Shown here in pieces: positions 1-20,402 of a DNA stretch of 32,000 nt; position 1 is the first letter of the stretch, and the number at the start of each line of letters is the position of its first letter. This DNA is from Kineococcus radiotolerans SRS30216 = ATCC BAA-149 (GTDB lineage Bacteria; Actinomycetota; Actinomycetes; Actinomycetales; Kineococcaceae), in NCBI RefSeq assembly GCF_000017305.1, contig NC_009664.2, positions 1,980,001-2,012,000 on the forward strand, in the 5' to 3' direction. The translations under genes and the position numbers were made by a program. The notes beneath the pieces are model-generated. The model was not told where the DNA came from. It saw only the letters and a list, made by a program, of their open reading frames with translations, and did not search any database.

Positions 1-629
1 CCAGCGGGGTGCTCGGGCCGCTGCCGGAGGAGCCGGCGCGGTTGCTGCGCATCGCCGACGAGAACGCCGACCGGCTCGCGGCGCTGGTGAACGACATCCT
101 GGACGTGGAGCGCCTGGACGCCGGGACGATGCCGCTGGAACCGGAGGACGTCGACCTGGCCGACCTGGCGCGCGCCGGGGTGGAGCAGCTGGAGAGCACC
201 GCCGTGGCCGCCGGGGTGGAGCTGGTGCTCGGCGAGGTGGGGCCGGCGCGGGTGCACGCCGACCCGCACCGCATCGCGCAGGCCCTGACGAACCTGGTGG
301 GCAACGCCGTGAAGTTCAGCGAGGCCGGTGGGCGGGTCGAGGTGACCTGCCGGCGCACCGCGCGGGAGGCCCGGCTGGCGGTGCGCGACGAGGGCCGCGG
401 CATCCCCCACGACCAGCTGGAAGCCGTGTTCGACCGCTTCCGGCAGGTGTACGCCAGCGACGCGCAGCGGCAGTCCGGCAGCGGCCTGGGCCTGGCCATC
501 ACCAAGGGGATCGTCGAGCGCAGCGGCGGGCGGGTCGAGCTGCGCAGTCGGCCGAACGAGGGAAGCGAGTTCACCGTGGTGCTGCCCCTGACCGATGCAG
601 AGGAGGACGCACCCCCACCCGAACCCTGA
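1..629 (+). CDS. Sensor histidine kinase, C-terminal part (5' end lies outside window)
   Basis: Reading frame is open to the window edge. It shows the tail of a DHp helix (ENADRLAALVNDILDVERLD) followed by HATPase_c N/G1/G2-type boxes (LTNLVGNAVKFS, RDEGRGIP, GSGLGLAI). TGA at 627-629. Confidence 0.9.
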   Translation, partial: SGVLGPLPEEPARLLRIADENADRLAALVNDILDVERLDAGTMPLEPEDVDLADLARAGVEQLESTAVAAGVELVLGEVGPARVHADPHRIAQALTNLVGNAVKFSEAGGRVEVTCRRTAREARLAVRDEGRGIPHDQLEAVFDRFRQVYASDAQRQSGSGLGLAITKGIVERSGGRVELRSRPNEGSEFTVVLPLTDAEEDAPPPEP

Positions 630-644
630 CCCGAGGAGGCACCC

Positions 645-1025
645 GTGGCGCGCACGGTCCTCGTCGTCGACGACGAGCCGCACCTGCGGGAGCTGGCCGC
701 CCTCAGCCTGGAGCGCGTCGGCGGGTTCGCGGTCCTCACCGCCGGCTCCGCGGAGGAGTGCCTCGCCGCCGTCGCCGAGCACGGCCCCGACCTGGTGCTG
801 CTGGACGCGATGATGCCCGGCACCGACGGGCCGGGGACGCTGGCGCGGTTGCGCGCCGCACCGGCGGGCGCCGCGGTGCCCGTGGTCTTCCTCACCGCCA
901 GCGTGCAGCGCCACCAGGTCGCGCAGCTGGGGGCGCTGGACGTCCTGGGCGTCCTGAGCAAGCCGTTCGACCCGATGGAGCTGTCGGCGCAGGTCTGCGG
1001 GCTGGCGGGCTGGCACGGGCCGTGA
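645..1025 (+). CDS. Stand-alone CheY-like receiver (single-domain response regulator)
   Basis: GTG 645 lies 5 nt after GAGGAGG (633-639). Receiver signature present: VVDDE acidic pair, LLDAMMPG phospho-acceptor Asp, LTAS, SKPF Lys. No output domain. Confidence 0.9.
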   Translation: MARTVLVVDDEPHLRELAALSLERVGGFAVLTAGSAEECLAAVAEHGPDLVLLDAMMPGTDGPGTLARLRAAPAGAAVPVVFLTASVQRHQVAQLGALDVLGVLSKPFDPMELSAQVCGLAGWHGP

Positions 1026-3442
1026 CCTCCGCCGTCGCCGAACCCGCCGCCCTGCTCGCGGCCCCCGGCCGCACGGCCCTCGTCGTCGACGACGACGAGA
1101 TGATCTCCCACCTCGTCTCGGCCGGCCTGCGCGCCGCGGGCATGACCGTCGTGACCGCCTCCGACGGCCGCGAGGCCCTGCAGCGCCTCGCCGAGGCCGT
1201 GCCGGACGTCGTGGTCTCCGACGTCAACATGCCCGGCATGGACGGCTTCGCCCTCGTCAGCCGCCTGCGCGCCGAACCCGCCACCCGCGCGGTGCCGCTG
1301 GTGTTCCTCACCTCCCGCGCCGAGGCCTCCGACGCGCTCGCCGCGCTGCGGCTGGGCGCGGACGACTACGTGCGCAAGCCGTTCGACCTGACCGAGCTGG
1401 TGGCCCGGGTCGTGGCGAAGCTGGACCGCCCACCGGTACCGGTCGACCAGCTCCTGCACGACCCGCGCACCGGGCTGCTCTCGCCGTCCGCGATGGCCGC
1501 CGAGGTGGGCCGGGAGGTCGAACGGGCCGGCGCCGGGGGCCGGCAGGGGGCCCTGGCCGTCCTGGAGGTCGCGGAGCTGTCGCCGCTGCGGGCGCGGTTC
1601 GGCGCGCGCGGCGAGGCGGAGCTCGCGCTGCAGGTCGCGGCCGTGCTGGGGGCGGCGACCACGGCCGTCCCCGGTGCCCGGCTGGGCCGCGCCCAGGACG
1701 GGCGGTTCCTCGCGCTGCTGCCCGACGTCGCCCCCGACCGCGTGCACGAGCTGCTGGCGGAGGCGTCGCAGGAGGTGGTGCGTCGCCGCGTCACCGTCGC
1801 CGGGGAGGCCCTGGACCTGACGCCCGTCACCGGGTGGGTCGCCCTGACCGACGTCGTGGGCGCCGAGCACCCCGTGGACCCCGACGCCGACCCCCGCGGC
1901 GCTGCGGGGACCGGGGAGCGGGCCGTGGCCCTGGCCGCCACCGCGGCCGGGGCCGCCTCGATGCACCTGGACCTGCAGCCGGTGCGCTGGACGACGCAGC
2001 TGGGTGGCGTGCCCGTCCCCGCGCAGGCTCCGGCCGGCCCGTCGCGGTGGCGGCGGTGGCGCTCGGCGGTCCGCACCCCGTTCCAGGTGCTGCTGACGCT
2101 GGTCGTGGGGGTCGTGGTCCCGTTCCTGGTGTACGTCGCCGTCTGGCGGTTCACGGGGATCGACCTGGGCCCGGTGGCGTACCTGGTCGTCGTGGGCGCG
2201 CTGGTGGTGACGGCGGGGTCCATCTGGGTGGAGGGCCTGCTGGCGCTGGACCCGGTGCGCCCGCCCGCCGAGACCGGCGGACCGCACCCGCGCGCCTCGG
2301 CGATCATCGCCGCGTACCTGCCGAACGAGGCCCTGACGATCGTGGAGACCGTCGAGGCGTTCCTGGCCCAGGACTACCCCGGCGAGCTGCAGGTCGTCCT
2401 CGCCTACAACGGACCCGACCGGCTGCCGGTGGAGGACGCGCTGGAGGCGATCGCGGCGCGCGACCCGCGCTTCGTGCCGCTGCGCGTGGAGGGTTCCACC
2501 TCCAAGGCGCAGAACGTCAACGCGGGGCTCGCCGTGGTGAGCGGTGAGTTCGTCGGCGTGTTCGACGCCGACCACCACCCCGAACCCAGCTCCTTCCGGC
2601 GGGCCTGGCGCTGGCTCGGCGGCGGTTACGACGTCGTGCAGGGCCACTGCGTCGTGCGCAACGGCGACGCCAGCTGGGTGGCGCGCACCACCGCGGTCGA
2701 GTTCGAGTCCATCTACGCCGTCAGCCACCCGGGGCGGGCCCGCCTGCACGGCTTCGGCGTCTTCGGCGGCTCCAACGGCTACTGGCGCACCGACCTGCTG
2801 CGCCGCACCCGCATGCACGGGTTCATGCTCACCGAGGACATCGACTCCAGCCTGCGCGTCGTCGAGGCCGGTGGCCGGATCGCCAACGACCCGGCCCTGC
2901 TGTCGCGCGAACTGGCCCCCACGACGCTGAAGGCGGTGTGGAACCAGCGGATGCGCTGGGCGCAGGGCTGGTTCCAGGTCTCGCTCAAGCACCTGCCGAG
3001 GGCGTGGGGTTCCCCGCACCTCGGGCTGCGGCAGAAGCTGGGCATGACGTTCCTGCTGGGCTGGCGCGAGGTGTACCCGTGGATCTCGTTGCAGGCCTAC
3101 CCCGTGGTGGCGTACCTGGCGTGGCGCTCCGGGGGTCTGCAGAACCTGGACTGGGCGGTCCCGCTGTTCGTCCTCACCACCCTGTTCACCACCTCCGTCG
3201 GTCCCGGCCAGACGCTCACCGCGCGGCGGGTGGCCGTCCCCGAGATCCGCCGGCAGCGGTGGTGGTTCCTGCGGTACCTGTTCGTGTCGTCGTTCTTCTA
3301 CACGGAGTTCAAGAACGTCATCGCGCGCGTCGCGCAGATCAAGGAGTTCACCGGTGAGCGGGAGTGGAAGGTGACCCCGCGCAGCGTGGTGGTCGCAGGG
3401 GCACCGCCGGTGCCCGGACCGCGGGACGGGAGCGGGTCGTGA
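1022..3442 (+). CDS. Receiver / degenerate GGDEF-like / transmembrane / family-2 processive glycosyltransferase fusion protein
   Basis: GTG 1022 overlaps the upstream TGA (GTGA, 1022-1025). REC motifs: VVDDDE, VVSDVNMPGMDG, LTSR, VRKPF. The GGDEF-fold region starts at DPRTGLL, with the GGDEF site replaced by AQDGRF (1691-1708). Two hydrophobic helices follow, then GT2 motifs DAD (2564-2572), TED (2831-2839) and QRMRW (2945-2959), then at least 3 more hydrophobic helices. Confidence 0.85.
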   Translation: MTSAVAEPAALLAAPGRTALVVDDDEMISHLVSAGLRAAGMTVVTASDGREALQRLAEAVPDVVVSDVNMPGMDGFALVSRLRAEPATRAVPLVFLTSRAEASDALAALRLGADDYVRKPFDLTELVARVVAKLDRPPVPVDQLLHDPRTGLLSPSAMAAEVGREVERAGAGGRQGALAVLEVAELSPLRARFGARGEAELALQVAAVLGAATTAVPGARLGRAQDGRFLALLPDVAPDRVHELLAEASQEVVRRRVTVAGEALDLTPVTGWVALTDVVGAEHPVDPDADPRGAAGTGERAVALAATAAGAASMHLDLQPVRWTTQLGGVPVPAQAPAGPSRWRRWRSAVRTPFQVLLTLVVGVVVPFLVYVAVWRFTGIDLGPVAYLVVVGALVVTAGSIWVEGLLALDPVRPPAETGGPHPRASAIIAAYLPNEALTIVETVEAFLAQDYPGELQVVLAYNGPDRLPVEDALEAIAARDPRFVPLRVEGSTSKAQNVNAGLAVVSGEFVGVFDADHHPEPSSFRRAWRWLGGGYDVVQGHCVVRNGDASWVARTTAVEFESIYAVSHPGRARLHGFGVFGGSNGYWRTDLLRRTRMHGFMLTEDIDSSLRVVEAGGRIANDPALLSRELAPTTLKAVWNQRMRWAQGWFQVSLKHLPRAWGSPHLGLRQKLGMTFLLGWREVYPWISLQAYPVVAYLAWRSGGLQNLDWAVPLFVLTTLFTTSVGPGQTLTARRVAVPEIRRQRWWFLRYLFVSSFFYTEFKNVIARVAQIKEFTGEREWKVTPRSVVVAGAPPVPGPRDGSGS

Positions 3443-3732
3443 ACGAGACCGAGGCCATGCGGGCGTTGACCGCCGACCTGTGGGAGCAGCTGCGCCCGCT
3501 GGTGCGCGCGCGCCTGGAGCAGCTCGACGAGTGGGTCGCGACCGGCCAGCAGCTCGACGGGCGCGCGGAGGCCGTGCGCACCGCGCACAACCTGTCCGGT
3601 TCGCTGGGCAGCTACGGCCGCCACGAGGGCTCCCTCGCCGCCCGGGCGCTGGAGCACGCCCTGCTCGCCGACGAGAGCCCGGGCCTCGTCGTCGACCTGG
3701 TCGCCGCGCTGCACCGGGCGGTGGACGCGTGA
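3439..3732 (+). CDS. Hpt-like histidine phosphotransfer protein
   Basis: GTG 3439 overlaps the upstream TGA (GTGA); the alternative start is ATG 3457. About 97 aa, predicted helical, with the Hpt-type motif AHNLSGSLGSYG (His codon 3586-3588; compare HxLKGS). G/C-rich third positions. Confidence 0.7.
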   Translation: MNETEAMRALTADLWEQLRPLVRARLEQLDEWVATGQQLDGRAEAVRTAHNLSGSLGSYGRHEGSLAARALEHALLADESPGLVVDLVAALHRAVDA

Positions 3733-4922
3733 GCCGGCACCCGACCGCGGCACCCGGCGGCCCGTCCGCCGGTGGCCGCCTGGCGGGGCTGGAGGGGTAC
3801 CGGGGGATCGCCGCGGTGCTCGTCGTGGTGTTCCACGTCTACCAGGAGCTCCGCGTCGACGGGGAGTACTTCCTGGTGGGCACGTGGGCCCACCCGTGGC
3901 TGTACGCGCTGGACACGACGGTCGACCTGTTCTTCGCCCTCTCGGCGTTCCTGCTGGCGCTGCCCTACCTGCGCAAGGCCGTCGCCGGGGAACGCCCCCT
4001 GGGGGCCGCGGAGTTCCTGCGCCGCCGCGCCGTGCGCATCGTGCCGCTGTACTACCTCGTCATCACCGCGGTGTGGGCCACCCGCAACGGCAGCCTGCCC
4101 GGCGAGTGGCGGGACCTGCTGGAGCACCTGACGTTCACGCAGGTGTTCGACGACCAGCGCATCTTCTACACGGTGGGCCCGGCGTGGTCGCTGGCCGTGG
4201 AGGTGCAGTTCTACGTGCTGCTGGCCGTGCTGGGGGCGGCGGTGTGCGCGGTGTGCCGCCGGGCGCGGCGGCGCGGGTCGCGGATCGCCGTCGCCGCCGC
4301 GTCCGGGCTGCTGCTGGTCGCCGTGGGCGTCGGGTGGAAGCTCGCCGCGCACGCGCTGGGGCGTCCGGAGACGGACTGGAGCACCTGGTTCTCGCTGCCC
4401 GCGAAGCTGGACGTGTTCGGGTTCGGGGTGCTGCTGGCGCTGCTGGTGGCCCTGCGGGGCACCGCCCCCTCGCGGCTGCTGCCGCCGCTGATGGTGGTGT
4501 GCTCCGCCCCGCTGCTCCTGGCGGCGGTGTGGGCGGGCACGCAGCAGGGGCTGGCCGCCGAGCTGCGGCACACCCTCGCCGGCGCGGGCTTCACGCTGCT
4601 GCTGGGCGCCACCGTCCTCAGCGGTCCCCGCTCGGTGGCCGCCCGGGCGCTGGAGGCGCGGCCCGTGGCCTTCCTCGGCCTGATCAGCTACAGCCTGTAC
4701 CTGTGGCACGAGCCGCTGATGCTGTGGATGACGGCACTGCCGGTGTGGCCGACGACGTCCAGCCCGGCGACGCTGGCCCTGGGGACGGCGCTGCTGCTGC
4801 CGGTGGCCGTGCTGGTGGCCTGGGCCAGCTACTGGGTGGTCGAGCACCCCGCGGGCGCCCTGCGCCGGACCCGGACCGCGGACGGCCGTCCGCGCCTCTA
4901 CTACGGCGAGGGCGCCGGCTGA
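3729..4922 (+). CDS. Acyltransferase family 3 membrane protein (polysaccharide O-acyltransferase type)
   Basis: GTG 3729 overlaps the Hpt TGA (GTGA). N-terminal LEGYRGIAAVLVVVFH motif, about 10 hydrophobic segments, and C-terminal LGLISYSLYLWHEP motif typical of the OafA/Acyl_transf_3 family. Confidence 0.85.
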   Translation: MSRHPTAAPGGPSAGGRLAGLEGYRGIAAVLVVVFHVYQELRVDGEYFLVGTWAHPWLYALDTTVDLFFALSAFLLALPYLRKAVAGERPLGAAEFLRRRAVRIVPLYYLVITAVWATRNGSLPGEWRDLLEHLTFTQVFDDQRIFYTVGPAWSLAVEVQFYVLLAVLGAAVCAVCRRARRRGSRIAVAAASGLLLVAVGVGWKLAAHALGRPETDWSTWFSLPAKLDVFGFGVLLALLVALRGTAPSRLLPPLMVVCSAPLLLAAVWAGTQQGLAAELRHTLAGAGFTLLLGATVLSGPRSVAARALEARPVAFLGLISYSLYLWHEPLMLWMTALPVWPTTSSPATLALGTALLLPVAVLVAWASYWVVEHPAGALRRTRTADGRPRLYYGEGAG

Positions 4923-5109: not shown

Positions 5110-5484
5110 TCAGCGCCCGGCGAGCAGCGGGGCGAGGGCGCGCGCCATGTCGCGGGCGCGGGGCAGGTCGCGGGCGGCGGCGGGCCGGCGCACGGCGAGG
5201 ACGCCCTCGCCGGGGGCGGGGTCGGTGACGTCGAGCACGACGGCGCGGCCGTCGACGAGCATCGCGTCGAGGAGGCGCTCGGCGTCGGGGGCGGCGGTAG
5301 CGACCCGCGAGCGCAGCAGGTGCCCGACGGCGGTGGTGCGGGCCAGGCGCAGCAGGAGCTTGTCGTCGTCGAGGTGGTTCAGCTCCGGGCGGCGCACCAG
5401 CAGCCGGGCCAGAGCGGCGATCTCGGCGGCGGTGGCGGGCGGAGGGGGCGCGGGGGCGGTGCGGGGGCGGGAGTGGTGCTGCAC
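5110..5484 (-). CDS. Hypothetical protein (about 124 aa)
   Basis: G/C-rich third positions. GTG 5484 lies 5 nt after GAGGAAG (rc of 5490-5496); the ORF could extend to GTG 5508. No motif I recognise. Confidence 0.55.
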   Translation of the reverse strand: MQHHSRPRTAPAPPPPATAAEIAALARLLVRRPELNHLDDDKLLLRLARTTAVGHLLRSRVATAAPDAERLLDAMLVDGRAVVLDVTDPAPGEGVLAVRRPAAARDLPRARDMARALAPLLAGR

Positions 5485-5571
5485 GGTGGCTTCCTCGGGG
5501 CTGCGCACGGTGTCAGCCCCGGGTGGGCTGTCCGCTCCCCCTGGTTCTCGGCGCCGGGGGGTCGGGCCGTG

Positions 5572-6384
5572 ATGCGCCGTTCGGGGGGTCGTCCTGGGGT
5601 AGCGTCGGGCGACCGTCGTCCCCGATCACCGAGCGAGTCCACGTTGGCCGAAGCCCTGCGCTGCGTCGTCGTCCTGCCCACGTACGACGAGGCCGACAAC
5701 GTCGCCGAGATGCTGGAGCGGGTGCTCGCCTGCCCCGTCGCCCCCGACGTCCTCGTGGTGGACGACTCCTCCCCCGACGGGACGGGCGCGATCGTCGAGC
5801 GCGTCGCCGCGACCCACCCGCCGGGGCGGGTGCGGCTGCTGACCCGCACCACGAAGGACGGCCTGGGCGCGGCCTACCGGGCCGGGTTCGCGCACGCCCT
5901 GGCCACCGGGGACCACGACGTCGTCGTGCAGATGGACGCCGACGGGTCGCACCCGGTGGAGGCGCTGCCCCGGATGCTGGCCGAGCTCGCCGACGGCGCC
6001 GACCTCGTCCTCGGGGCCCGCTACGTGCCCGGCGGGGCCCTCGACGACGCCTGGCCCTGGTACCGCAAGGCCCTCTCGCGCGGGGCGAACGTCTACGCGC
6101 GGCTGCTGCTGCGCGCCCCGGTGGCCGACCTCACCGGCGGCTTCAAGGCCTGGCGCGCGGACCTGCTGCGCTCGCTGGACCTCTCGCAGCTGACCGCCGC
6201 CGGCTACGCGTTCCAGATCCAGACGACGCTGGCGGCGCTGCAGGCGGGCGCGACGGTGCGCGAGGTGCCGATCCTCTTCACCGAGCGCACCCGCGGCACC
6301 TCGAAGATGTCCAAGGAGATCATCGGCGAGGCGATGCTCGCGGTGCTGCGGATGCGCCGGCACGGCCCCACCGGGCGCCGCTGA
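5572..6384 (+). CDS. ppm1: Polyprenol-phosphate mannosyltransferase (Dpm1/Ppm1-type GT2)
   Basis: Carries VVLPTYDEADN, VVDDSSPDGTG, KDGLGAAYRAGF, QMDADGSHP, GARYVPGG, TGGFKAWR and GTSKMS, the classical Dpm1/Ppm1 motif series. Start is uncertain (GTG 5569, ATG 5572 or TTG 5644). Confidence 0.85.
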   Translation: MRRSGGRPGVASGDRRPRSPSESTLAEALRCVVVLPTYDEADNVAEMLERVLACPVAPDVLVVDDSSPDGTGAIVERVAATHPPGRVRLLTRTTKDGLGAAYRAGFAHALATGDHDVVVQMDADGSHPVEALPRMLAELADGADLVLGARYVPGGALDDAWPWYRKALSRGANVYARLLLRAPVADLTGGFKAWRADLLRSLDLSQLTAAGYAFQIQTTLAALQAGATVREVPILFTERTRGTSKMSKEIIGEAMLAVLRMRRHGPTGRR

Positions 6385-6395: not shown

Positions 6396-6812
6396 TCAGG
6401 CGGGGAGCGCGGAGACGTTCACCATCCAGTCGACCCCGAAGCGGTCGATGAGGGCGCCGTACTCGTCGCCCCACACCTGGACCTCCAGCGGGGTGGTGAC
6501 CTCCCCGCCCTCCGCGAGACCGGCGAAGCAGGCGCGCAGGTGCGCGGCGTCGTCGCCGGAGAGGCAGAGGGCGACGTTCCCGCCGGTGCTCGCGGCCGCC
6601 CCCGGCATGGCGTCGGAGACCATGAGGGTGAAGCCGTCCGGGGTGTCGAGCTGGCCGTGCATGACGCCGTCGGGGTCGGCGCCCCCGCCGCCCCCGCCGA
6701 ACTCGGCGAAGGTGGAGACGGTGACCTCCCCGCCGAGCACGGAGCGGTAGTGGTCGAGGGCCTCGCGGGCGGTGCCGGCGAGGCAGACGTAGGGGCTCAG
6801 ACGGGGTGCCAC
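6396..6812 (-). CDS. VOC/glyoxalase-fold protein, PhnB/YjdN-like
   Basis: GTG 6812 lies 6 nt after AGGAGG (rc of 6819-6824). LSPYVCL...AREALDHYRSVLGGE...MHGQL...LMVSD...FGVDWMV matches the PhnB-like family pattern. The upstream part of ORF 6396..6875 was discarded. Confidence 0.8.
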   Translation of the reverse strand: MAPRLSPYVCLAGTAREALDHYRSVLGGEVTVSTFAEFGGGGGGADPDGVMHGQLDTPDGFTLMVSDAMPGAAASTGGNVALCLSGDDAAHLRACFAGLAEGGEVTTPLEVQVWGDEYGALIDRFGVDWMVNVSALPA

Positions 6813-7069
6813 GGGGAACCTCCTGGGAACGGGCCGGGGGTCCGGCGCCACCGCCCGGCGGGTCCGGGCGGACACCCTGGGGACCCGGGGCGGCCGCGGG
6901 ACTCATCGGTGCCGCGGCGGCGACCACCCCGTGATTGCGTCACGTTCGGTGATCTGGGATGGTCACCCGGTCAGCAGCGCCGCGAAGCGGTCCACCGTCC
7001 CGCGCGGTGCCTCCTCGGCTCGACCGGGCTGCCCGACACGTCCGGAGCACGCTCGCGGGAGGTCGACAG

Positions 7070-8227
7070 GTGCAGGGCCAGGTACGGGACGACGACGCCG
7101 ACGCCGTCGCCCAGCTGCTGGAGCTGGCCCGCGACATCTTCGGGACCCCGGTGGCCGCCCTCACCCGGGCGACGGGGGCGACGCACCACCACGTCGAGCA
7201 GACCGCGAGCAGCCTCGACCCGCACGCCACGGTCCGGCTGCTGGCCGACACCGACCTGGACACCTGCCGGCTCGTCGTCGACGTCGTCCGTCCCGACGGC
7301 GAACCCGGCGGGCGGATCGTCGGGGTCCACCACGAGCCGGTGGAGACCCTGGGCTCGCGCCAGCAGGAGGCCCTGCACGTCGTCGCGGCCCTGGTCGCCG
7401 GGGTGCTGCACCACCGCGAGCGCCGCCGCGTCGAGCACGACGACCGGGTCGCCTCCCTCGACGCGCTGCTGGCCGGTCACGGCCGCCTCACCGTCGTGCA
7501 GCCCATCGTGGACCTGCGGGCCGGGCAGGTCGTGGGGGCGGAGGCGCTGAGCCGGTTCACCGGTCCCGAGGGGGCCGCCCGGCGTCCCGAGCAGGTGTTC
7601 GGCGACGCCCGGTCCGCCGGGGTGGGGGTCCAGCTGGAGCAGGCGGCCATCGCCTCGGCCCTGCCGCTGCTGCGGGAGGTGCCGGCGGGGGCGTACCTGA
7701 GCGTGAACGCCTCCGCGGAGGCGCTGCTGGACGAGCGCACCCACGAGCTGCTGCTGTCCGGGCACCCGGAGCGCCTCGTCGTGGAGATCACCGAGCACGA
7801 CCCGGTGCCCGACTACGACGCCCTGACCGCGGCGACGGCCGCGCTGCGCGCGCACGGGGTGCGGATCGCCGTCGACGACGCGGGGGCCGGCTTCGCGAGC
7901 CTGCAGCACGTCCTGCACCTGACCCCGGACGTCGTGAAGCTGGACACCGCGTTCGTGCGGGGCATCGACGTCGACCCCGCCCGCCGGGCCGTGGCCCGCG
8001 CGCTGGTGGGCTTCGCCTCGGAGCTGGGCTCGACGATGGTGGCCGAGGGCGTGGAGCGGGCCGGGGAGCTGGCGGTCCTGCGCGACCTGGGGGTGGAGTG
8101 CGGCCAGGGGTACCTGCTGGGCCGGCCCACCGCGAGCCCCGCGTGGGGCGAGCGGGGCAGCGACACGACGACCGTCGTCCTGTCCCGGCACCCGGAGCAC
8201 GAGGAGCCCCCCCACCCGGTCGGGTGA
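7070..8227 (+). CDS. GAF-like N-terminal domain + EAL domain protein (putative c-di-GMP phosphodiesterase)
   Basis: GTG 7070 lies 7 nt after GGGAGG (7057-7062). EAL catalytic set is present: GAEALSRF, SVNAS, EITEH, DDAGAG, KLD, EGVE, QGY. Confidence 0.85.
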   Translation: MQGQVRDDDADAVAQLLELARDIFGTPVAALTRATGATHHHVEQTASSLDPHATVRLLADTDLDTCRLVVDVVRPDGEPGGRIVGVHHEPVETLGSRQQEALHVVAALVAGVLHHRERRRVEHDDRVASLDALLAGHGRLTVVQPIVDLRAGQVVGAEALSRFTGPEGAARRPEQVFGDARSAGVGVQLEQAAIASALPLLREVPAGAYLSVNASAEALLDERTHELLLSGHPERLVVEITEHDPVPDYDALTAATAALRAHGVRIAVDDAGAGFASLQHVLHLTPDVVKLDTAFVRGIDVDPARRAVARALVGFASELGSTMVAEGVERAGELAVLRDLGVECGQGYLLGRPTASPAWGERGSDTTTVVLSRHPEHEEPPHPVG

Positions 8228-8252: not shown

Positions 8253-9149
8253 TCAGAAGGTGACGATGCTCAGCGCGCCCTTGCCGTAGCGGGTCACCTC
8301 GACCGTGAGGTCGAGACGGCTGCCGGTGCGGGTCGCCCAGTCGGCCACGTCGGGGCGCAGGGCCTCGCCGGGCGCGTAGCTGGCGTACAGCTTCAGGTGC
8401 GCGGCACCCTCCACGTTGAACAGCGACGCCATGATGTTGAGCACCTCCTTGGCGTTGACCGTGAGGTTCTCCGGCAGCTCCCGGTCCTCGATGGCGGCTT
8501 CGCTGGCCCCGGGGGGCAGCAGGCCGATCGAGGCGCCGGCGTGGGCGGCCAGCGCGAAGTCGAAGACCACGACGGCCTTGGACTTCAGGTGGTCGTCCAC
8601 GTACAGCCCGACCAGCGACCCGGGCTTGCCGCCGACCGGCACGGGCCGGCCGTCGGCGAGCTCGACGTCGCGGTTGAGCAGGTCGGAGAGCAGGTTGCGG
8701 ATGGCGAGGTTGGAGGGCAGCGGGTTGACCTCGAACTTCACCTCCCCCTGCGCGACGGCCGTCGTGGCGGTGGCCGGGCCGGCGTCGCCGCCGAGGACCG
8801 GGGCCAGCGCCGCGGCGAACTGCTCGGGGGTGAAGGGCTTGGCGATGAGGAAGAGGGCGCCGGCGGCGGCGGCCTTCTCCCGCATCTCCTCCGAACCCTC
8901 CGACGTCACGAAGCCGAACGGCACGTCGAGCCCGGAACCGCGCAGGTTCTGCAGCATCTCGTAGCCGCTGGCCTCGGGCATGTTCCAGTCCGAGAGGACG
9001 ATGTCGGGGTTCTCCTTGCGGACCGCGTCGAACCCCTCCTTGCCGTTCTCGGCCTGGACGACGTCGACCCAGTCGAACCCCGCCTGGCGCAGCGTGCGGA
9101 TGACGATCTGCCGCATGACGCGGCTGTCGTCGACCACCAGGGCCTTCAC
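8253..9149 (-). CDS. CheY-like receiver fused to a CheX/CheC-like C-terminal domain
   Basis: GTG 9149 follows GGAGGGG. REC motifs: VVDDSR, LSDWNMP, KPF. The C-terminal half aligns by eye with the neighbouring CheX (VVVFDF/IVTVSV, NAKEVLNIMAS/DSLGEVANIVGG) and keeps E-x2-N, but not the D/S at -4. Confidence 0.75.
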   Translation of the reverse strand: MKALVVDDSRVMRQIVIRTLRQAGFDWVDVVQAENGKEGFDAVRKENPDIVLSDWNMPEASGYEMLQNLRGSGLDVPFGFVTSEGSEEMREKAAAAGALFLIAKPFTPEQFAAALAPVLGGDAGPATATTAVAQGEVKFEVNPLPSNLAIRNLLSDLLNRDVELADGRPVPVGGKPGSLVGLYVDDHLKSKAVVVFDFALAAHAGASIGLLPPGASEAAIEDRELPENLTVNAKEVLNIMASLFNVEGAAHLKLYASYAPGEALRPDVADWATRTGSRLDLTVEVTRYGKGALSIVTF

Positions 9150-9153
9150 GGGA

Positions 9154-9657
9154 TCACCCCTCCTGCGTCTGGTCGCCGGCGGCGGCCAGCCACACCTCGA
9201 ACGTCAGCCAGTGACCCTGCCAGCTCCCGTCCAGGCGCGCCGCGAGGCGGCCGGAGGAACCGTGCAGGGGCTTGGCCGTCGAGACGACGGGCAGGCCGAG
9301 CGGGCCGGCGTCGGGGACGAGCGCCTTGATGTTGCCGCCGACGATGTTGGCGACCTCGCCGAGGGAGTCGTAGACGTCCTCGTCGGTCAGGTCGCCGTCC
9401 TCCTGCAGCAGCGCCGCCGACAGCGGCACGGCCGCCGCCTTCTCGACGCTGACCGTGACGATGCCCGGGCGGCCGCCGGAGATCGTCACCGAGGCGCAGA
9501 GGATGTCGCCCTCGATGTCGTGCGGGTCGAAGGAGGGGGCGAGGTAGTCGGTGTGGGCGAAGTACGACGCCCACATCTGGTCGACGATCTGCTCCAGGGC
9601 TTCGTCCTCGACGTAGTCCATGGCGACGTCGTGGCCGTTCTCGATGGTGTCGGTCAC
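9154..9657 (-). CDS. cheX: CheX-type chemotaxis CheY-P phosphatase
   Basis: GTG 9657 overlaps the cheY TGA (GTGA). The D-x3-E-x2-N core DSLGEVAN (9346-9369) of the CheC/CheX/FliY family is present. About 167 aa. The alternative start is ATG 9621. Confidence 0.8.
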   Translation of the reverse strand: MTDTIENGHDVAMDYVEDEALEQIVDQMWASYFAHTDYLAPSFDPHDIEGDILCASVTISGGRPGIVTVSVEKAAAVPLSAALLQEDGDLTDEDVYDSLGEVANIVGGNIKALVPDAGPLGLPVVSTAKPLHGSSGRLAARLDGSWQGHWLTFEVWLAAAGDQTQEG

Positions 9658-10037
9658 GCCTGGCTCACCTCCGGCAGCAGCCCGAGCAGGGACAGCTTCT
9701 CCTCCAGCGCGTCCACGGTGAACGGCTTGATGAGGTACTCGTGCGCACCGGCGGCCAGGGCGCGGACGATCTGCCCGTGCTCGGCCTCGGTGGTGACCAT
9801 CATCAGCGTCAGCGCGCGGTACTCGCGGTTCGCCCGGACCTGCGTGACGAACGTGAGACCGTCCATCACCGGCATGTTCCAGTCGACCGTGGCGAGGTCG
9901 GGCAGCGGGCCCGCCTCGAGGACCTTCAGCGCCTCGGCGCCGTCGGCCGCTTCGACCGTCTCGTACCCGAGCTTCCGCAGTGCACCAGCGATGATCTTCC
10001 GCATGGCGCGGGAGTCGTCGACGACAAGAGCCCTCAT
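9654..10037 (-). CDS. cheY: Chemotaxis response regulator CheY
   Basis: 127-aa single receiver: VVDDSRAMR, VDWNMPVMDG, VTTE, IKPF. ATG 10037 overlaps the cheR TGA (ATGA). Confidence 0.9.
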   Translation of the reverse strand: MRALVVDDSRAMRKIIAGALRKLGYETVEAADGAEALKVLEAGPLPDLATVDWNMPVMDGLTFVTQVRANREYRALTLMMVTTEAEHGQIVRALAAGAHEYLIKPFTVDALEEKLSLLGLLPEVSQA

Positions 10038-10864
10038 GCCTGACCTCCGTTCTTGGGACGGTGGACCGAAACCCTTCCGATGAGTTCGCGGTCCCAGTTC
10101 TCATCGACGCCGAGCGTCGTTTCTGCACCCCCGAGGAACATGTATCCCCCGGGCTTGATGACCTTGCGGACCCGGGACAGGATGTCCCGCTTGGTCTCCA
10201 GGTCGAAGTAGATGAGCACGTTCCGCAGGAACACCACGTCGAACTGCCCGAGGGCGGCGTAGGAGCTCGTGAGGTTCAGCTGCTGGAAGCGCACCATCTT
10301 CTTGAGGTTGTCGTTCACCTGCCACTGGGTGCCGACCCGCGTGAAGTGGCGCACCAGCAGGGGCGCCGGCAGTCCGCGGTTCATCTCCAGCTGCGAGTAA
10401 CGACCCGCCTTGGCCTTCTCCAGCACCTCGGTGGAGAGGTCGGTGCCGATGATCTCGGCGCGCCACCCCTCCGCGACGACGCTGTCCTGCAGCCCCATGG
10501 CCAGGCTGTAGGCCTCCTGGCCGGTGGAGGAGGCCGCGGACCAGACGCGCAGGGAGCGCGTCGTGGCCCGGGCCTGCTTGAGGGCGGGGACCACGGCGGT
10601 CGAGAACGCCTGGAACGGGGCGCCGTCGCGGAACCACGACGTCTCGTTCGTCGTCAGCGCCTCGACGATGGCGGTCTGCGCGCGGCGGTCGGGGCGCAAC
10701 CGGATGCCGTCGACGTAGGCGGAGACGTCGGCCGCGCCCGCGGCGCGTGCCAGGGGCACGAGCCGGGACTCGACGAGGTACTCCTTGCCCTTCTCGAGGA
10801 CGATCGCACTCTCCTTGCGCACGAGCGTGCAGACCCAGTCGAAGGCCGTGGGCGTGAGGGCCAT
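10034..10864 (-). CDS. cheR: Chemotaxis protein methyltransferase CheR
   Basis: ATG 10864. CheR N-domain (FDWVCTLVRKESAIVL), TNETSWFRD, and the SAM motif VWSAASSTGQEAYSLAM; also VFLRNVLIYFD. The upstream P/R-rich part of ORF 10034..11116 was discarded. Confidence 0.93.
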   Translation of the reverse strand: MALTPTAFDWVCTLVRKESAIVLEKGKEYLVESRLVPLARAAGAADVSAYVDGIRLRPDRRAQTAIVEALTTNETSWFRDGAPFQAFSTAVVPALKQARATTRSLRVWSAASSTGQEAYSLAMGLQDSVVAEGWRAEIIGTDLSTEVLEKAKAGRYSQLEMNRGLPAPLLVRHFTRVGTQWQVNDNLKKMVRFQQLNLTSSYAALGQFDVVFLRNVLIYFDLETKRDILSRVRKVIKPGGYMFLGGAETTLGVDENWDRELIGRVSVHRPKNGGQA

Positions 10865-10865
10865 G

Positions 10866-12125
10866 TCACCACCTGCCTTGGGAGGGACGGGCCGCGGGAG
10901 CGGCGGGGCGGGACGCCGGCGGACGCGCCGGCGGGGTGCTGCGGGTGGGGCTGGTCGAGACGGTGGGGCGGGTGCTGCCGGCCGCCGGGGGGCGCGCGGC
11001 CGGGGGGTGCGGGGCCGACGCGGTCCGGGCGCCCGGCCCGAGCCGGCGCTGGATCGCGTCGGCGATGGCCGACAGGGGCAGGACCTCGTCCGCGATGCCC
11101 TCGCGGGTGACGGCACCGGGCATCCCCCAGACCACCGAGGTGGCCTCGTCCTGGGCCAGGACCTGGCCGCCGGCGGCCGCGATGTCCTTGCAGCCGAGCT
11201 TGCCGTCCGACCCCATGCCGGTGAGGATCACCGCGAGGAGCTCCCCGCCGAAGGCGGCGACCGCCGAGCGGAGCATGACGTCCACCGCCGGTCTGCAGAA
11301 GTTCTCGGCAGGTCCCTGGTGCAACTTGATCACCATCTGCGGACCGCGCCGGGCGACCTCCATGTGGAAGTCGCCGGGGGCCACGTAGACCGTCCCGGCC
11401 ACGACGGGTTCGCCGTCGGTGGCCTCGACGACGCGCAGGGCGCTGCTCTTGTCCAGCCGCTGGGCGTAGAGGCGGGTGAAGACGGGGGGCATGTGCTGGG
11501 TGACCAGCACGGGCACGCCGAGGGTGGCGGGCAGCTTCGCCAGGACCGCCGAGAGGGCCTCCGGGCCCCCGGTGGAGGAGCCGATGACGAGCGCGCGGGG
11601 GGTCTTGGCCGCACCGGTGGGGGTGCGGGTGGTCACCGGCGTCGCCGGGCGGGCCGGGGTCGCGGCGGGTGCGCTGGGCGCGGGCGCCGCGGGGGGCGCC
11701 GCGAGGTGGCCCAGGTGCGGCACGAGGGCCTTGATCTTGGGGATCAGCTGCTGGCGCACCGACTCCATCGACTCCGCGACGCTGCCCACGTTGGCGGGCT
11801 TGGTGACGTAGTCGGAGGCGCCGGAGGACAGCGCCTCGAGGGTGGCGGTGGCGCCGCGCTCGGTGAGGGTGGAGAACATGATGACCGGCAGCCGCCGGTC
11901 GATCTTGCGGATCTCCTTGATCGCCTCGAGCCCGTCCATGACGGGCATCTCGATGTCGAGGGTCACGACGTCGGGCTTGAGCTGGAGGATCTTCTCCAGG
12001 GCGAGCTTGCCGTTGGCGGCCGTGCCGACGACCTCGATGGCCGGGTCGGAGGCGAGCACGTCGGTGACCAGCCGCCGGACGACGACGGAGTCGTCGACGG
12101 TGAGCACCTTGATGCGTTGACTCAC
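10866..12125 (-). CDS. cheB: Chemotaxis methylesterase/deamidase CheB (REC + CheB_methylest) with a Pro/Ala-rich C-terminal tail
   Basis: GTG 12125 (VSQRIKVLTVDD). REC shown by DIEMPVMDG. Esterase motifs: IGSSTGGP, TQHMP, LTGMGSDG, WGMP. A 57-aa low-complexity tail runs to the stop codon 10866-10868, 1 nt before the cheR ATG. Confidence 0.93.
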   Translation of the reverse strand: MSQRIKVLTVDDSVVVRRLVTDVLASDPAIEVVGTAANGKLALEKILQLKPDVVTLDIEMPVMDGLEAIKEIRKIDRRLPVIMFSTLTERGATATLEALSSGASDYVTKPANVGSVAESMESVRQQLIPKIKALVPHLGHLAAPPAAPAPSAPAATPARPATPVTTRTPTGAAKTPRALVIGSSTGGPEALSAVLAKLPATLGVPVLVTQHMPPVFTRLYAQRLDKSSALRVVEATDGEPVVAGTVYVAPGDFHMEVARRGPQMVIKLHQGPAENFCRPAVDVMLRSAVAAFGGELLAVILTGMGSDGKLGCKDIAAAGGQVLAQDEATSVVWGMPGAVTREGIADEVLPLSAIADAIQRRLGPGARTASAPHPPAARPPAAGSTRPTVSTSPTRSTPPARPPASRPAAPAARPSQGRW

Positions 12126-12202
12126 GCCGCACCTGACCTTCCCTGGCGACGGCGCAGGGGTCGGCGCCGTGGAACGCCGCCCGGGCCTGGGCGGCTCCTC
12201 TT

Positions 12203-12229
12203 CCATCGGCCGCCGGTGGCCAACCCTGA
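12203..12229 (-). promoter_or_regulatory. Putative sigma-28 (FliA/WhiG)-type promoter of the cheB operon
   Basis: Minus strand reads TCAG-N15-GCCGATGG about 77 nt upstream of the cheB GTG. The -10 matches GCCGATAA in 6/8 positions. The same bipartite motif occurs at 19284-19310 and 24165-24191. Confidence 0.4.
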
Positions 12230-12322
12230 AGCCCGCGTCCCGCTCCTCGTCGCTGCGCGCACACAGCTACTGTGCGTCGCCAAGCGGTCACGCGTCGACC
12301 GGTGCCGCGTCGCCCCCGTCCC

Positions 12323-12362
12323 CCGGCGGGGATCCCGCGCAGTGCTGCGGGATCCCCGCCGG
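12323..12362 (-). terminator. Hairpin downstream of ycnI
   Basis: CCGGCGGGGATCCCGC (12323-12338) pairs with GCGGGATCCCCGCCGG (12347-12362): 16-bp perfect stem, 32 nt after the ycnI stop. No U-tract. Confidence 0.45.
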
Positions 12363-12393
12363 AGGTGCGGCCGGCGCTGCGCGCCGGGGGGGG

Positions 12394-13149
12394 TCAGGCG
12401 CGGCGGCGGCGCAGCAGGACGACGACGAGGGCCGCGAGGCCGAGGGCCAGGCCCGCACCCGCGAGGCCGCGGGCCACCGGGTCCGCCCCCGGCGCCGCCG
12501 TGGTCGAGGCCGCCGGGGTGGTCGCCGGGGTGGCGGCCGCCTCGGCGTGCGACCCGCCGTGGTGGTCCTCGCCCGCCGCGGTGGTGGTGAACTCCGGCGC
12601 GGGCTTGTCCGGCTCCCCGGCCCCCTCCGCGGCGACCTCGCTCCAGTCCGCGACCTCGCCGTCGGCGTAGGTCTGGACGGTGGGCAGGACCACGCGGGTC
12701 CCGGCCCCGGGCAGGGGGCCGACGTTGGCCTCGAACTCCTCGAACTGGCCGACGGCGATCCCCGCCGACCCCGGGTCCGCGGTCCAGGTGACGCTCAGCG
12801 GCGCCTTCGTCAGGGTCGTGCCGCCGACCTCGACGGGCGCCGGCAGCGCGCCCTCGGTGACGACGGCGCTCCAGCCCGCCACGGGCCGGACCGCGACGTA
12901 GGAGAAGGGGTGCTCGGTCGGCAGGGAGACCCGCACCGACGTCGTCGCGGCGGTGTCGGACTCGTTGGGCACCCGGAACGTCACGACGCTGTAGCCGTCG
13001 GCGGCCGTCGTGTCGGGGGTGGCGTGGACGTGCGCCGCGGCGGGCACGGCGGCCAGCAGGAGCGCACCGCCCGCGGTGGCGGCGACCGCCAGGGCGCGGC
13101 TGGTCCGGGCGCGCGCGGGCAGGGTGGAGCGCAGGGTGGAGCGGTTCAC
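12394..13149 (-). CDS. ycnI: YcnI-family (DUF1775) copper-binding protein with signal peptide and C-terminal membrane anchor
   Basis: GTG 13149 lies 5 nt after GAGGAAG. A signal peptide ends AAAHVHATP, giving a mature N-terminal His. FRVPNES motif is present. C-terminal hydrophobic helix plus RRRRA. Confidence 0.85.
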   Translation of the reverse strand: MNRSTLRSTLPARARTSRALAVAATAGGALLLAAVPAAAHVHATPDTTAADGYSVVTFRVPNESDTAATTSVRVSLPTEHPFSYVAVRPVAGWSAVVTEGALPAPVEVGGTTLTKAPLSVTWTADPGSAGIAVGQFEEFEANVGPLPGAGTRVVLPTVQTYADGEVADWSEVAAEGAGEPDKPAPEFTTTAAGEDHHGGSHAEAAATPATTPAASTTAAPGADPVARGLAGAGLALGLAALVVVLLRRRRA

Positions 13150-13170
13150 GGTGTCTTCCTCAGGGGTGGG

Positions 13171-13803
13171 TCAGGACGTGGGGACGGGGGCGGAGCCCAC
13201 CGGCGGACCACGTCGCCTGACCCGGCGCGCGACCACGGACCGCGGTCGCGCGGGGGGCGTCGCGGGGAAGGGCGCGGGGCGGGCGGCGACGAAGCGCAGC
13301 AGGTCCCGCAGGACCCGGGCCAGGGGCCGCAGCCACGCCCACAGCGACCACAGCAGCCGCTCCCCGTGCAGCAGCAGGAGCAGGGCGGCGACGGTCGCCG
13401 CGACGTGGGCCAGGGTCATCGCCGCCGAACCGGACCCGGCGGACCCGGCGGCGCCGTCGACGGCGCCGGTCAGCGGGGTCCACTCCAGGTGGTGGCCGTG
13501 GGCGACGACCGCGACGGCCTGCGCGGGGCAGGCGTCGAACAGCTCGTGCAGCGTGACCTGACCGCCGCCGAGGAGCCCCGCCAGCCCGGACCGGCTGAAG
13601 CGGCGGCCGGCGAGCAGCAGGCTGAGCGCCCCCACCACGACGGCCACGGCGAGCAGCAGCGGGATCCCGGGCGCCCGCCCGCCCGCGGCGAGGTGTGCCC
13701 CGGCGGCCAGGCCGACGACCGTGGTGGCCACCGCTCCCGCCCGGGCGCAGCGCAGCGCCCCGCGCACCGGCGAGGTGCCGGCGGTCGCGGGGCGGTTCGG
13801 CAC
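13171..13803 (-). CDS. Hypothetical integral membrane protein with a His cluster
   Basis: 3-4 hydrophobic segments and VVAHGHHLEW. G/C-rich third positions. Same strand as ycnI and 21 nt upstream of it. Confidence 0.6.
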   Translation of the reverse strand: MPNRPATAGTSPVRGALRCARAGAVATTVVGLAAGAHLAAGGRAPGIPLLLAVAVVVGALSLLLAGRRFSRSGLAGLLGGGQVTLHELFDACPAQAVAVVAHGHHLEWTPLTGAVDGAAGSAGSGSAAMTLAHVAATVAALLLLLHGERLLWSLWAWLRPLARVLRDLLRFVAARPAPFPATPPARPRSVVARRVRRRGPPVGSAPVPTS

Positions 13804-13833
13804 CCCCCCACGCTACCGGGAGGGCGGCGGGGC

Positions 13834-14763
13834 TCAGGCGGGGCCGAAGGCCGCTTCCCACGGGCGCAGGAGGACGGCGCGGGCGTCGGAGGACAGCAGG
13901 TCGGCGACGACCTCGGCGTGCACGACCCCGCTGACGACGTTCCACAGGCCCTCGGCCCCGTCGGCGGCGTCGAGGCCCCCGGCGCGGAAGGCGCGGACGG
14001 CGAGCAGCTGGGCGACGGCGGCGGTGCGCACGCGGTCGGACAGGTGAACCGCCCAGGACGCGTCGTGCACCGCACCCGCCCACTCCCCCGCACCGGGGCG
14101 GCTGGCGGCAGCCACGGCGCGCAGGCAGGCGCGGTCGGTGCCGTCGAGGCGGCGCAGGCGGTCCAGGACCCGCTCGACCCCGGCCTGGGCCTCCCCGAGC
14201 CCGGTCGGGCGCTCGGGCAGCGGGGCGAGGTCGCGGCAGGCCTGCAGGTAGGGGTGGGCCAGGACCCGGCGGGCGTGGTCGGGCAGCCGGTCGCCGAGGT
14301 AGGCGGAGACGGCGGCGTCGGCGAGGACGTCGGCGGCGCGCCCGGCGTCCTCGGTGCGCAGCCGGGGCCCGCCCTCCAGCGGCGCGGACCAGGTCCAGTC
14401 GAAGACGTCGTGGTGCACGAGGCGGACCAGCGCGTCGGCGTCGGCGATGGTGCTGGTCTGCAGGACCCGCACGACCCCCCGCTCGACCCGGGCCCCGGAG
14501 ACCTCGTCGGCGAAGTCGTCGCGGGCGAGGCCGTTGGCCACCTGGTGCAGGACGTCGGTCAGCTGGGGGACGCCGTCGCAGGCGGTGCGCACCGCGTCCC
14601 AGGCGGCCGTGCGGGTGGCCGGGTCGTGGCGGGCGGCGAGGACGTCGATCTCGCGCGGGCCGCAGTCCAGGGCCCGGAGCAGGACCTCCGCGGCGGAGTC
14701 GCCCGCGGGCAGCCGCACGAGGTCGAAACCCAGCACGGGGGAGCTCACCAGGGAGTAGTGCAT
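13834..14763 (-). CDS. Hypothetical protein (309 aa)
   Basis: ATG 14763 lies 9 nt after GGAGG. Balanced amino-acid composition and G/C-rich third positions. The N-terminal 46 codons of ORF 13834..14901 were discarded. Confidence 0.6.
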   Translation of the reverse strand: MHYSLVSSPVLGFDLVRLPAGDSAAEVLLRALDCGPREIDVLAARHDPATRTAAWDAVRTACDGVPQLTDVLHQVANGLARDDFADEVSGARVERGVVRVLQTSTIADADALVRLVHHDVFDWTWSAPLEGGPRLRTEDAGRAADVLADAAVSAYLGDRLPDHARRVLAHPYLQACRDLAPLPERPTGLGEAQAGVERVLDRLRRLDGTDRACLRAVAAASRPGAGEWAGAVHDASWAVHLSDRVRTAAVAQLLAVRAFRAGGLDAADGAEGLWNVVSGVVHAEVVADLLSSDARAVLLRPWEAAFGPA

Positions 14764-14963
14764 GGTCGTCCGCCTCCAGGCCGGTCGTGCGCCGTCCGGT
14801 CGGTCGGCGTGGTTCCACCCTGACACTGCGTGACCCGCCCGGCGAGGCGTCGTCAGCCGTCCGGCGGCACGTCGGCGTGTCGGACCCCCCGCGCAGCTCA
14901 CCGGCCGCGACCGCGCTGCTCCGTCCGGGGGACGCGCGCGCCGGTGCGCCGTAACGTCGGGTC

Positions 14964-15881: not shown

Positions 15882-15894
15882 GCCCCGGGACGTC

Positions 15895-16239: not shown

Positions 16240-16261
16240 ACCGCCTGCGGCGGAACGCAGG

Positions 16262-16292: not shown

Positions 16293-16303
16293 GCGCGCGG
16301 TGC

Positions 16304-16744: not shown

Positions 16745-16745
16745 G

Positions 16746-20396: not shown

Positions 20397-20402
20397 GTCG
20401 CG

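Follow-up and report, generated by a model that had tools for sequence, protein, structure and literature searches.

How is a polysaccharide synthase controlled when its own polypeptide carries both a phosphorylation input and the remains of a second-messenger enzyme? This question is raised by a gene in a 32,000-nucleotide stretch of Kineococcus radiotolerans SRS30216 (NC_009664.2, positions 1,980,001 to 2,012,000 of the forward strand; the whole stretch is referred to below as the window), which encodes an 806-residue protein combining a receiver domain (REC), a catalytically dead GGDEF domain and a synthase-type family 2 glycosyltransferase (GT2) on one chain. Based on the analysis below, we consider it fairly probable that this protein is the catalytic and translocating subunit of an exopolysaccharide system of the Pga/Ica/Bcs type, that the synthase itself acts as the terminal acceptor of a His-Asp-His-Asp phosphorelay, and that the dead GGDEF domain acts as the adaptor between the two.

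The predicted product is 100% identical to an NCBI entry named 'response regulator [Kineococcus radiotolerans]' (P0001), and the guanine-plus-cytosine (GC) content of its open reading frame (ORF) by codon position, 0.76/0.52/0.97, is typical of a true coding sequence in a genome of 75% GC; the GC content of the window is about 75%. The domain order which the earlier note had read from the letters, namely REC, degenerate GGDEF, transmembrane (TM) helices, GT2 with the D,D,D,QxxRW signature, and more helices, was recovered by Pfam, a family profile, AlphaFold and Foldseek (Table 1). The motif coordinates given in that note are also right except for the start of DPRTGLL, which lies one codon earlier, at 1460 instead of 1463. 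The full-length AlphaFold model has a predicted local distance difference test score (pLDDT) of 91.4 and a predicted template modelling score (pTM) of 0.85, the latter suggesting a defined inter-domain arrangement in the model. The receiver domain scored 101 bits in comparison to a Response_reg cutoff of 30.2, and its phospho-acceptor pocket is complete (D24/D25, D67, T97 and K119). Among 112 aligned homologs, D67 is invariant and D24, T97 and K119 are each conserved in at least 90%, with a mean identity of the receiver to the query of 61%.

The genes directly around the synthase encode the other components of a phosphorelay, so that a full His-Asp-His-Asp gene set (kinase, REC, Hpt and terminal REC) is found in one operon. 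Behind the end of the kinase gene at 629, a GAGGAGG ribosome-binding site precedes the GTG start of the stand-alone REC gene at 645, and every following junction consists of a four-base GTGA overlap of start and stop: at 1022-1025, where the GTG start of the synthase shares the bases with the TGA stop of the REC gene, at 3439-3442 between synthase and Hpt, and at 3729-3732 between Hpt and the acyltransferase. Three consecutive overlaps of this kind imply that translation is tightly coupled and that relay and synthase are made in equimolar amounts, and the kinase, REC, synthase, Hpt and Acyl_transf_3 genes, judged from the sequence, form one translationally coupled unit. In this relay the kinase is predicted to act first, the stand-alone REC second and the Hpt protein third. 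The arrangement recurs in other genera. In Geodermatophilus, a GAF-PAS kinase, a REC protein, the synthase and an Hpt protein are encoded by overlapping genes followed by a glycoside hydrolase family 30 (GH30) gene, and the kinase orthologue is a 634-residue GAF-PAS-HisKA-HATPase protein in the same position. The Hpt gene also directly follows the synthase gene in Nocardioides, while the order is permuted in Cellulomonas (synthase, kinase, REC, Hpt, Acyl_transf_3), and an Anaerolineae genome carries synthase, GAF-HisKA and REC genes. With a complete receiver pocket and with kinase, REC and Hpt in the same operon here and in other genera, the context strongly supports the phosphorylation input that had been proposed from the letters.

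More than 1000 protein clusters matched at E < 1e-5, with full-length homologs at 47-81% identity and a query coverage of at least 94% for each of the top 120. At least 540 species-representative genomes carry a full-length homolog, distributed over Actinomycetota, Chloroflexota, Deinococcus, Dormibacterota, Acidobacteriota, Gemmatimonadota and Alphaproteobacteria. The architecture is thus common, and the view of the polypeptide as unusual has to be given up; as for the further concern that it might prove both common and already characterised, only the first half came true, since no paper on a REC-GGDEF-GT2 synthase was found in a full-text literature search that had most subscription journals outside its reach. 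In variants of about 1100 residues, the majority of them from Chloroflexota, an additional receiver is inserted into the N-terminal half (L006/L048 8001-11366; P0025, P0029, P0031, P0036, P0038, P0058, P0098), the Pfam order in P0058 being REC, a faint GGDEF, a second REC and GT2. Neighbouring genes were then counted in 83 non-duplicate loci with 3.5 kb flanks, using profiles built from the window proteins along with unbiased clustering of flanking ORFs. The results showed a same-strand two-component gene in 39 loci; a same-strand kinase was found in 35, a REC gene as conserved neighbour likewise in 35, and Hpt in at least 22.

The identity of the middle region required more than one line of evidence. 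On the single sequence, the Pfam GGDEF match (PF00990) is below threshold (E 0.016, 15.5 bits in comparison to a cutoff of 23.8) and phmmer of the region against PDB gave E 0.11. Because the single-sequence match was this weak, the assignment was tested independently by a family profile and a domain model, which resolved it. The profile, built from 30 homologs, matched 53 PDB sequences, nearly all of them GGDEF, with SiaD (7e6g) as best match at E 5.7e-23. An AlphaFold2 model of residues 136-330 alone has a pLDDT of 94.2, and all of its top 50 Foldseek matches are GGDEF domains (for 3ign, query TM-score (TMq) 0.75, target TM-score (TMt) 0.87, root-mean-square deviation 2.4 Å). In the full-length model, AQDGRF is placed in the turn that connects strands 220-223 and 229-234, which is the GG(D/E)EF site of cyclases. 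A conserved HLDLQPV motif (nt 1964-1984) closes the domain, and the HLDLxPV segment is invariant in the family, about 20 residues ahead of the first TM helix (TM1). The N-terminal half as a whole superposes on PleD, WspR and DgcR (Foldseek E 2e-15 to 2e-13 over 312-342 columns). Profile and model together make it secure that the middle region has a true GGDEF fold homologous to GGDEF domains, as proposed in the earlier note, which had staked its reading on this point beforehand, and the regulatory module accordingly classifies by sequence as a PleD/WspR-type REC-GGDEF pair with an inactivated cyclase.

The residues that make a GGDEF domain work as an enzyme or as a conventional receptor are largely gone. 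QDGRF aligns opposite the GGEEF of active cyclases, and the five positions read x-x-G-R-F in the 112 aligned homologs, the first two being variable, the third G in 108 homologs, the fourth R in 76 and the fifth F in 86 or L in 24, so that Gly-Arg takes the place of the two catalytic acidic residues in most family members. GG[DE]EF was found nowhere in the sequences of 120 homologs, i.e., no member has an intact cyclase motif, and the domain is predicted to be catalytically dead across the whole family. The I-site-equivalent residues, by their spacing to the GGDEF position, are VPGA (216-219) in the Kineococcus protein and x-P-L-[DE] in the family. RxxD at this spacing, five residues upstream of the GGDEF position, occurs in 2 of the 120 homologs and is absent from the Kineococcus protein; the RLGR (220-223) previously taken for the site is four residues off, which leaves the earlier finding of a missing RxxD unchanged. 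In 3ign, the guanine-binding residues known from PleD structures correspond to the Asn of 'LxNRR' and the Asp of 'ND', and the positions opposite them are variable in the family and replaced in the Kineococcus protein. The GGDEF domain is also the least conserved part of the protein, with a mean identity to the query of 39%. Degeneration has gone further in the Kineococcus clade than elsewhere in the family (window 1667-1708, aa 216-229): two additional residues, PG, precede the hairpin and the otherwise common Asp of GRD has been lost, and the Pfam GGDEF model therefore passes for most homologs and not for the Kineococcus protein.

These residues weigh against the leading alternative, in which the degenerate GGDEF domain is a receptor of the PelD/PssE type for c-di-GMP, GTP or another nucleotide, and the ligand gates the synthase either jointly with phosphorylation or in its place. 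There is precedent in PssE of Listeria, a degenerate GGDEF domain serving a polysaccharide synthase, which binds with a dissociation constant of 0.8 µM (PMC4125290), and in PelD and PopA as reviewed (PMC10333796). The fold is fully preserved in the model, a family-specific, Arg-containing hairpin (GRDxxGRF) is conserved, and the synthase gene is followed, 3.5 kb downstream, by an EAL gene. PssE, PelD and PopA, however, bind through an RxxD I-site, which the Kineococcus protein does not have, and with the guanine-binding and GG(D/E)EF residues replaced as well, sensing of c-di-GMP or GTP is not supported. No EAL gene neighbours the synthase in four other genomes with called genes that were inspected, and K. 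radiotolerans is reported to have more than 80 c-di-GMP genes (PMC4443731), which makes proximity weak evidence; its presence was therefore rejected as a sign of c-di-GMP control, and the gene is probably unrelated to the synthase operon. The sequence facts thus argue against cyclase activity as well as against an I-site receptor of the PelD/PssE type while leaving room for an unconventional ligand site, and we regard a receptor role, which the earlier note had raised, as unlikely.

In the C-terminal half, a strongly hydrophobic helix pair (about aa 348-409), with a basic stretch RWRRWR ahead of TM1, is predicted to join the cytosolic sensor half to a cytosolic GT domain, the even number of helices being topologically consistent. 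Three overlapping Pfam GT2 models span aa 423-709 (E 8e-26 to 5e-14), including Glyco_tranf_2_3 (PF13641, aa 423-649, E 8e-26) and Glyco_trans_2_3 (PF13632, aa 513-709, E 7e-19), both above their cutoffs. P434-N435-E436, D515, D517, F581-G582-G583-S584 and T604-E605-D606 are invariant in the 112 homologs. QRMRW sits on the first helix after the GT domain, and QRxRW was found in 120 of 120 homologs, Q642, R643, R645 and W646 being invariant and position 644 variable. Identity to the query averages 78% in the GT domain and 67% in the C-terminal helices. Near the C-terminus, WKVTPR, which represents a W-x-[VI]-T-x-R motif shared by all 120 homologs, is presumably similar to the BcsA gating-loop motif FxVTxK and to motifs of the WGTR type in chitin and hyaluronan synthases. 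Foldseek matched the C-terminal half to BcsA (3e-14), hyaluronan synthase (HAS; 6e-13, and about 1e-12 for hyaluronan synthases generally) and chitin synthase (2e-8), and BcsA is also the closest solved structure by sequence (E 2e-7).

The protein therefore has the sequence features of processive membrane-integrated GT2 synthases (E436, DxD, TED and QRxRW, with PF13641 and PF13632 above cutoff), and the model has their structural ones, with two helices before the GT domain, five after it and a fold match to solved synthases; the helices flanking the GT domain would form the channel. The best NCBIfam model is PgaC_IcaA (TIGR03937, E 6e-22), followed by EpsU, CelA and NodC, all far under their curated cutoffs (45.1 bits in comparison to 699 for the CelA/BcsA model TIGR03030). 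Assignment to a named synthase family through NCBIfam was rejected for this reason, and the protein is best placed, as far as its sequence indicates, in the processive-synthase superfamily outside any named family. No PilZ domain was found in a Pfam scan of the synthase. The proposed grouping of the GT2 part with processive membrane-integrated synthases is thus upheld by structure matches and by the best NCBIfam model.

What is made and where it goes is suggested by the accessory genes in the 83 loci. Acyl_transf_3 occurs on the same strand in 30 of them, often 16-180 bp downstream of the synthase, GH30 in 19, and a protein with TPR and a PgaA-like β-barrel in 9. The PgaA-like protein is encoded upstream of the synthase in 9 of 9 loci, directly adjacent to it in 7 and separated from it by about 950 bp in the other 2, and these loci are all of the Alphaproteobacteria, Acidobacteriota and Gemmatimonadota examples, i.e., the groups with an outer membrane; the barrel domain scored 30.2 bits with PF21197 in comparison to a cutoff of 27. 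One GH30 protein (L054) matched Pfam GH30 at 4e-39, had endo-1,6-β-glucanase as its best NCBIfam model (256 bits in comparison to 40 for the runner-up) and carries a lipoprotein-type signal sequence. GH30 genes stand beside the synthase in Actinomycetota, Deinococcus and Gemmatimonadota, far above chance for so rare a family. In several genomes there are two GH30 matches beside the synthase (L023, L024, L028, L052, L063, L067), and those of L063 overlap and may be a single gene. The best NCBIfam match of the window acyltransferase is the succinyltransferase SucT (1.8e-9), and the Acyl_transf_3 partner is reminiscent of IcaC. PgaA-type porins, secreted endo-glycanases and membrane O-acyltransferases are the usual accessories of synthase-dependent exopolysaccharide systems, and their presence in these loci therefore argues for an exported polymer. 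The GH30 neighbours together with the affinity to PgaC/IcaA hint at a β-1,6 linkage, which is the most likely one (glucan or an N-acetylglucosamine (GlcNAc)-type polymer), and O-acylation of such a product is possible.

The same neighbours bear on a second alternative, in which the GT2 domain is a non-processive membrane glycosyltransferase that transfers one sugar to a lipid carrier or acceptor, like PcManGT, DPM, GtrB or ArnC. Archaeal PcManGT (6yv7) is in fact the top structural match by target coverage (TMt 0.74 over 408 columns), weak sequence matches to ArnC and PglI-type enzymes were obtained (E 0.009-0.018), and the window holds a second GT2 gene. Nevertheless, neither TED nor QRxRW varies within the family, whose members all have W-x-[VI]-T-x-R near the C-terminus, the best sequence models are PgaC_IcaA, CelA and NodC, the structure matches to BcsA, HAS and chitin synthase reach E 1e-14 to 1e-8, and a PgaA-like polymer porin upstream in 9 loci and a secreted endo-glycanase in 19 are sensible only for an exported polymer. 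A non-processive enzyme thus seems to us improbable; the synthase is predicted to be processive, and that it would make and translocate a polymer is supported indirectly by the porin and endo-glycanase neighbours. The remaining alternative, that the protein is a functional diguanylate cyclase joined to the synthase it targets and producing c-di-GMP locally, could draw on the superposition of the N-terminal half on PleD, WspR and DgcR over about 320 columns and on database names such as 'response regulator receiver modulated diguanylate cyclase' for some homologs, but it is effectively refuted by the sequence, in which GG(D/E)EF and the guanine-binding Asn and Asp are missing from the Kineococcus protein, Pfam GGDEF falls below cutoff there, none of 120 homologs has GG[DE]EF, and Gly-Arg replaces the catalytic acidic pair in most family members.

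In the phosphorelay model that we prefer, the cytoplasmic GAF/PAS histidine kinase would autophosphorylate and the phosphoryl group would pass to the stand-alone REC protein, then to Hpt and finally to Asp67 of the synthase receiver. Phosphorylation-driven dimerisation is established for PleD, WspR and DgcR, and by analogy phosphorylation would rearrange the REC-GGDEF module, most likely by dimerisation. The dead GGDEF domain, probably a signal adaptor, would then relay the change through its short-linker tether to TM1 to the GT2 active site or the WKVTPR loop, turning on polymerisation and secretion, a role comparable to that of PilZ in BcsA. The co-transcribed Acyl_transf_3 protein would O-acylate the polymer, which in related genomes the secreted GH30 hydrolase presumably trims and in diderms the PgaA-like porin presumably exports.

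Several observations weigh against this model. The best structural match by target coverage, PcManGT, is not known to be a polymer synthase, and even the best NCBIfam model, PgaC_IcaA, gave only 78.1 bits in comparison to an equivalog cutoff of 422.3. The profile survey found no GH30 gene in the window. Neither a PgaB/IcaB-type deacetylase nor a PgaD/IcaD partner was among the recurrent neighbour clusters, for which no dedicated search was made. None of the counted neighbours was present in 22 of the 83 loci, mostly from Chloroflexota and Dormibacterota, where either the relay is not always adjacent or the profiles miss it. The contact between the GGDEF and GT domains is a putative one, and the order of phosphotransfer and the effect of phosphorylation on catalysis are what we infer. 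A wider proposal, that a phylum-spanning synthase family serves as direct relay acceptor, switched by Asp phosphorylation and not by c-di-GMP, with the GGDEF domain exapted as a mechanical coupler and an O-acylated β-1,6-glucan as product, is tentative and somewhat doubtful as a whole; to our knowledge, β-1,6-glucan is regarded as rare in bacteria.

Comparison with known systems helps to place the Kineococcus-type synthase. Among named families, the PgaC/IcaA poly-β-1,6-GlcNAc synthases score best, and they have in common with it the motifs NE, DxD, TED and QxxRW and a GT domain flanked by TM helices on either side, just as the PgaA-like TPR and β-barrel protein upstream in 9 loci of the family recalls the Pga system. 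The protein is nevertheless not a PgaC/IcaA orthologue by score (78 bits in comparison to 422), and PgaC/IcaA is without the N-terminal REC-GGDEF module of about 335 residues; the hydrolase beside the Kineococcus-type synthases is GH30 and not of the PgaB or dispersin type. Another difference is that phosphorelay control is predicted here, whereas the Escherichia coli poly-N-acetylglucosamine (PNAG) synthase PgaCD binds c-di-GMP directly (PMC10333796). BcsA likewise combines a processive-type GT2, an integrated channel and a signalling domain on one polypeptide, but its regulator is a C-terminal, c-di-GMP-binding PilZ domain in place of an N-terminal REC and dead GGDEF, no BcsB accompanies the Kineococcus synthase, and the CelA model gave 45 bits in comparison to a cutoff of 699. 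PleD, WspR and DgcR have the REC-linker-GGDEF architecture and fold of the N-terminal half, but they possess GG(D/E)EF, and wild-type PleD and WspR also RxxD, while the Kineococcus family has neither and continues into a membrane synthase. In PelD and PssE, an inactive GGDEF domain is similarly dedicated to the control of an exopolysaccharide synthase (PMC4125290, PMC10333796); these are separate proteins binding c-di-GMP through RxxD, whereas the Kineococcus domain is part of the synthase polypeptide, has no RxxD and follows a receiver. The nearest mention that we found is a REC domain fused to a BcsA-like glycosyltransferase (PF13641) in Methanobacteriaceae (MTH_548), reported in a genome analysis only (PMC5847659). 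There too the receiver is joined directly to a PF13641 glycosyltransferase and the protein is likewise uncharacterised, but no GGDEF domain lies between the two and the fusion is confined to archaea.

Table 1. Features of the synthase, its operon and the surrounding window (window positions; assignments are predictions from profiles and models)
Feature	Residues	Window position (nt)	Strand	Evidence or remark
Synthase gene	806 aa	1022..3442	+	REC, dead GGDEF, 2 TM helices, GT2, C-terminal helices
Receiver domain (REC)	20-130	1079..1411	+	Pfam Response_reg (PF00072) E 5.3e-29
Degenerate GGDEF domain	145-320	1454..1981	+	Family profile, domain model; QDGRF (nt 1694-1708) in place of GG(D/E)EF
Motif DPRTGLL	147-153	1460-1480	+	
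Motif AQDGRF	224-229	1691-1708	+	
Two TM helices	341-408	2042..2245	+	AlphaFold helices 341-378, 383-408; Kyte-Doolittle peaks 2.8, 2.2
GT2 catalytic domain	423-635	2288..2926	+	Pfam PF13641, PF13632; Foldseek
GT2 motif LPNEA		2318-2332	+	
GT2 motif DAD	515-517	2564-2572	+	
GT2 motif FGGSNGYWR		2762-2788	+	
GT2 motif TED	604-606	2831-2839	+	
Interface and TM helices after GT domain	636-777	2927..3352	+	AlphaFold helices 636-663, 669-690, 692-702, 714-737, 746-777
Motif QRMRW	642-646	2945-2959	+	
C-terminal motif WKVTPR	782-787	3365..3382	+	W-x-[VI]-T-x-R in 120/120 homologs
Histidine kinase, C-terminal part, cut by window edge		9..629	+	Pfam HATPase_c 1.9e-29, HisKA 4e-6
Stand-alone REC protein	126 aa	645..1025	+	Pfam Response_reg 3.7e-23
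Hpt phosphotransfer protein	97 aa	3439..3732	+	Pfam Hpt 3e-6; His in AHNLSGS
Integral-membrane O-acyltransferase (Acyl_transf_3)		3729..4922	+	Pfam 1.4e-27; predicted polymer modification
Second GT2 gene		5320-6384	+	PF00535 6.6e-27; between acyltransferase and glyoxalase-family gene; no predicted operon link
Glyoxalase-family gene		6396-6875	-	
EAL-domain protein		6959-8227	+	Pfam 5.7e-53 (aa 178-390); N-terminal ~170 aa without Pfam assignment
REC protein		8253-9149	-	C-terminal half without assignment
CheX-domain protein		9154-10128	-	
CheB		10866-12206	-	
CheA		16746-19226	-	Hpt, dimerisation, HATPase, CheW domains
ATP_bind_1 GTPase-like protein		19397-20029	-	
Small ORF		20001-20402	-	No Pfam match
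Small ORF		20403-20868	-	No Pfam match
Large NIT + HATPase sensor		20937-25397	-	

The rest of the window, as far as it was annotated, is also listed in Table 1. The true start of the second GT2 gene probably lies well downstream of 5320. The minus strand carries a chemotaxis-like signalling cluster (8253-19226), and the gene order at 19397-25397 on the same strand resembles that of an actinobacterial 'conservon'.

Overall, the description that fits the protein best is that of a Pga-like exopolysaccharide synthase gated by a phosphorelay and carrying an exapted GGDEF domain. The characterised bacterial synthase-dependent systems known to us (cellulose, PNAG, Pel, alginate, Listeria Pss and mixed-linkage glucan) are all activated post-translationally by c-di-GMP, and the analysis suggests a widespread alternative to this control of synthase-dependent polysaccharide secretion. 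If this is true, direct phosphorylation of the synthase would replace the c-di-GMP logic in a widespread system in which the c-di-GMP machinery is a fossil kept as a structural part, and the family would offer a clean model for the reuse of a signalling enzyme domain as an adaptor. The finding also suggests that soil Actinomycetota, Chloroflexota, Deinococcus and other groups, the desiccation- and radiation-resistant Kineococcus among them, make a matrix or capsule polymer that has so far escaped study, with the GH30 and acyltransferase partners as experimental handles on the identity of that polymer.

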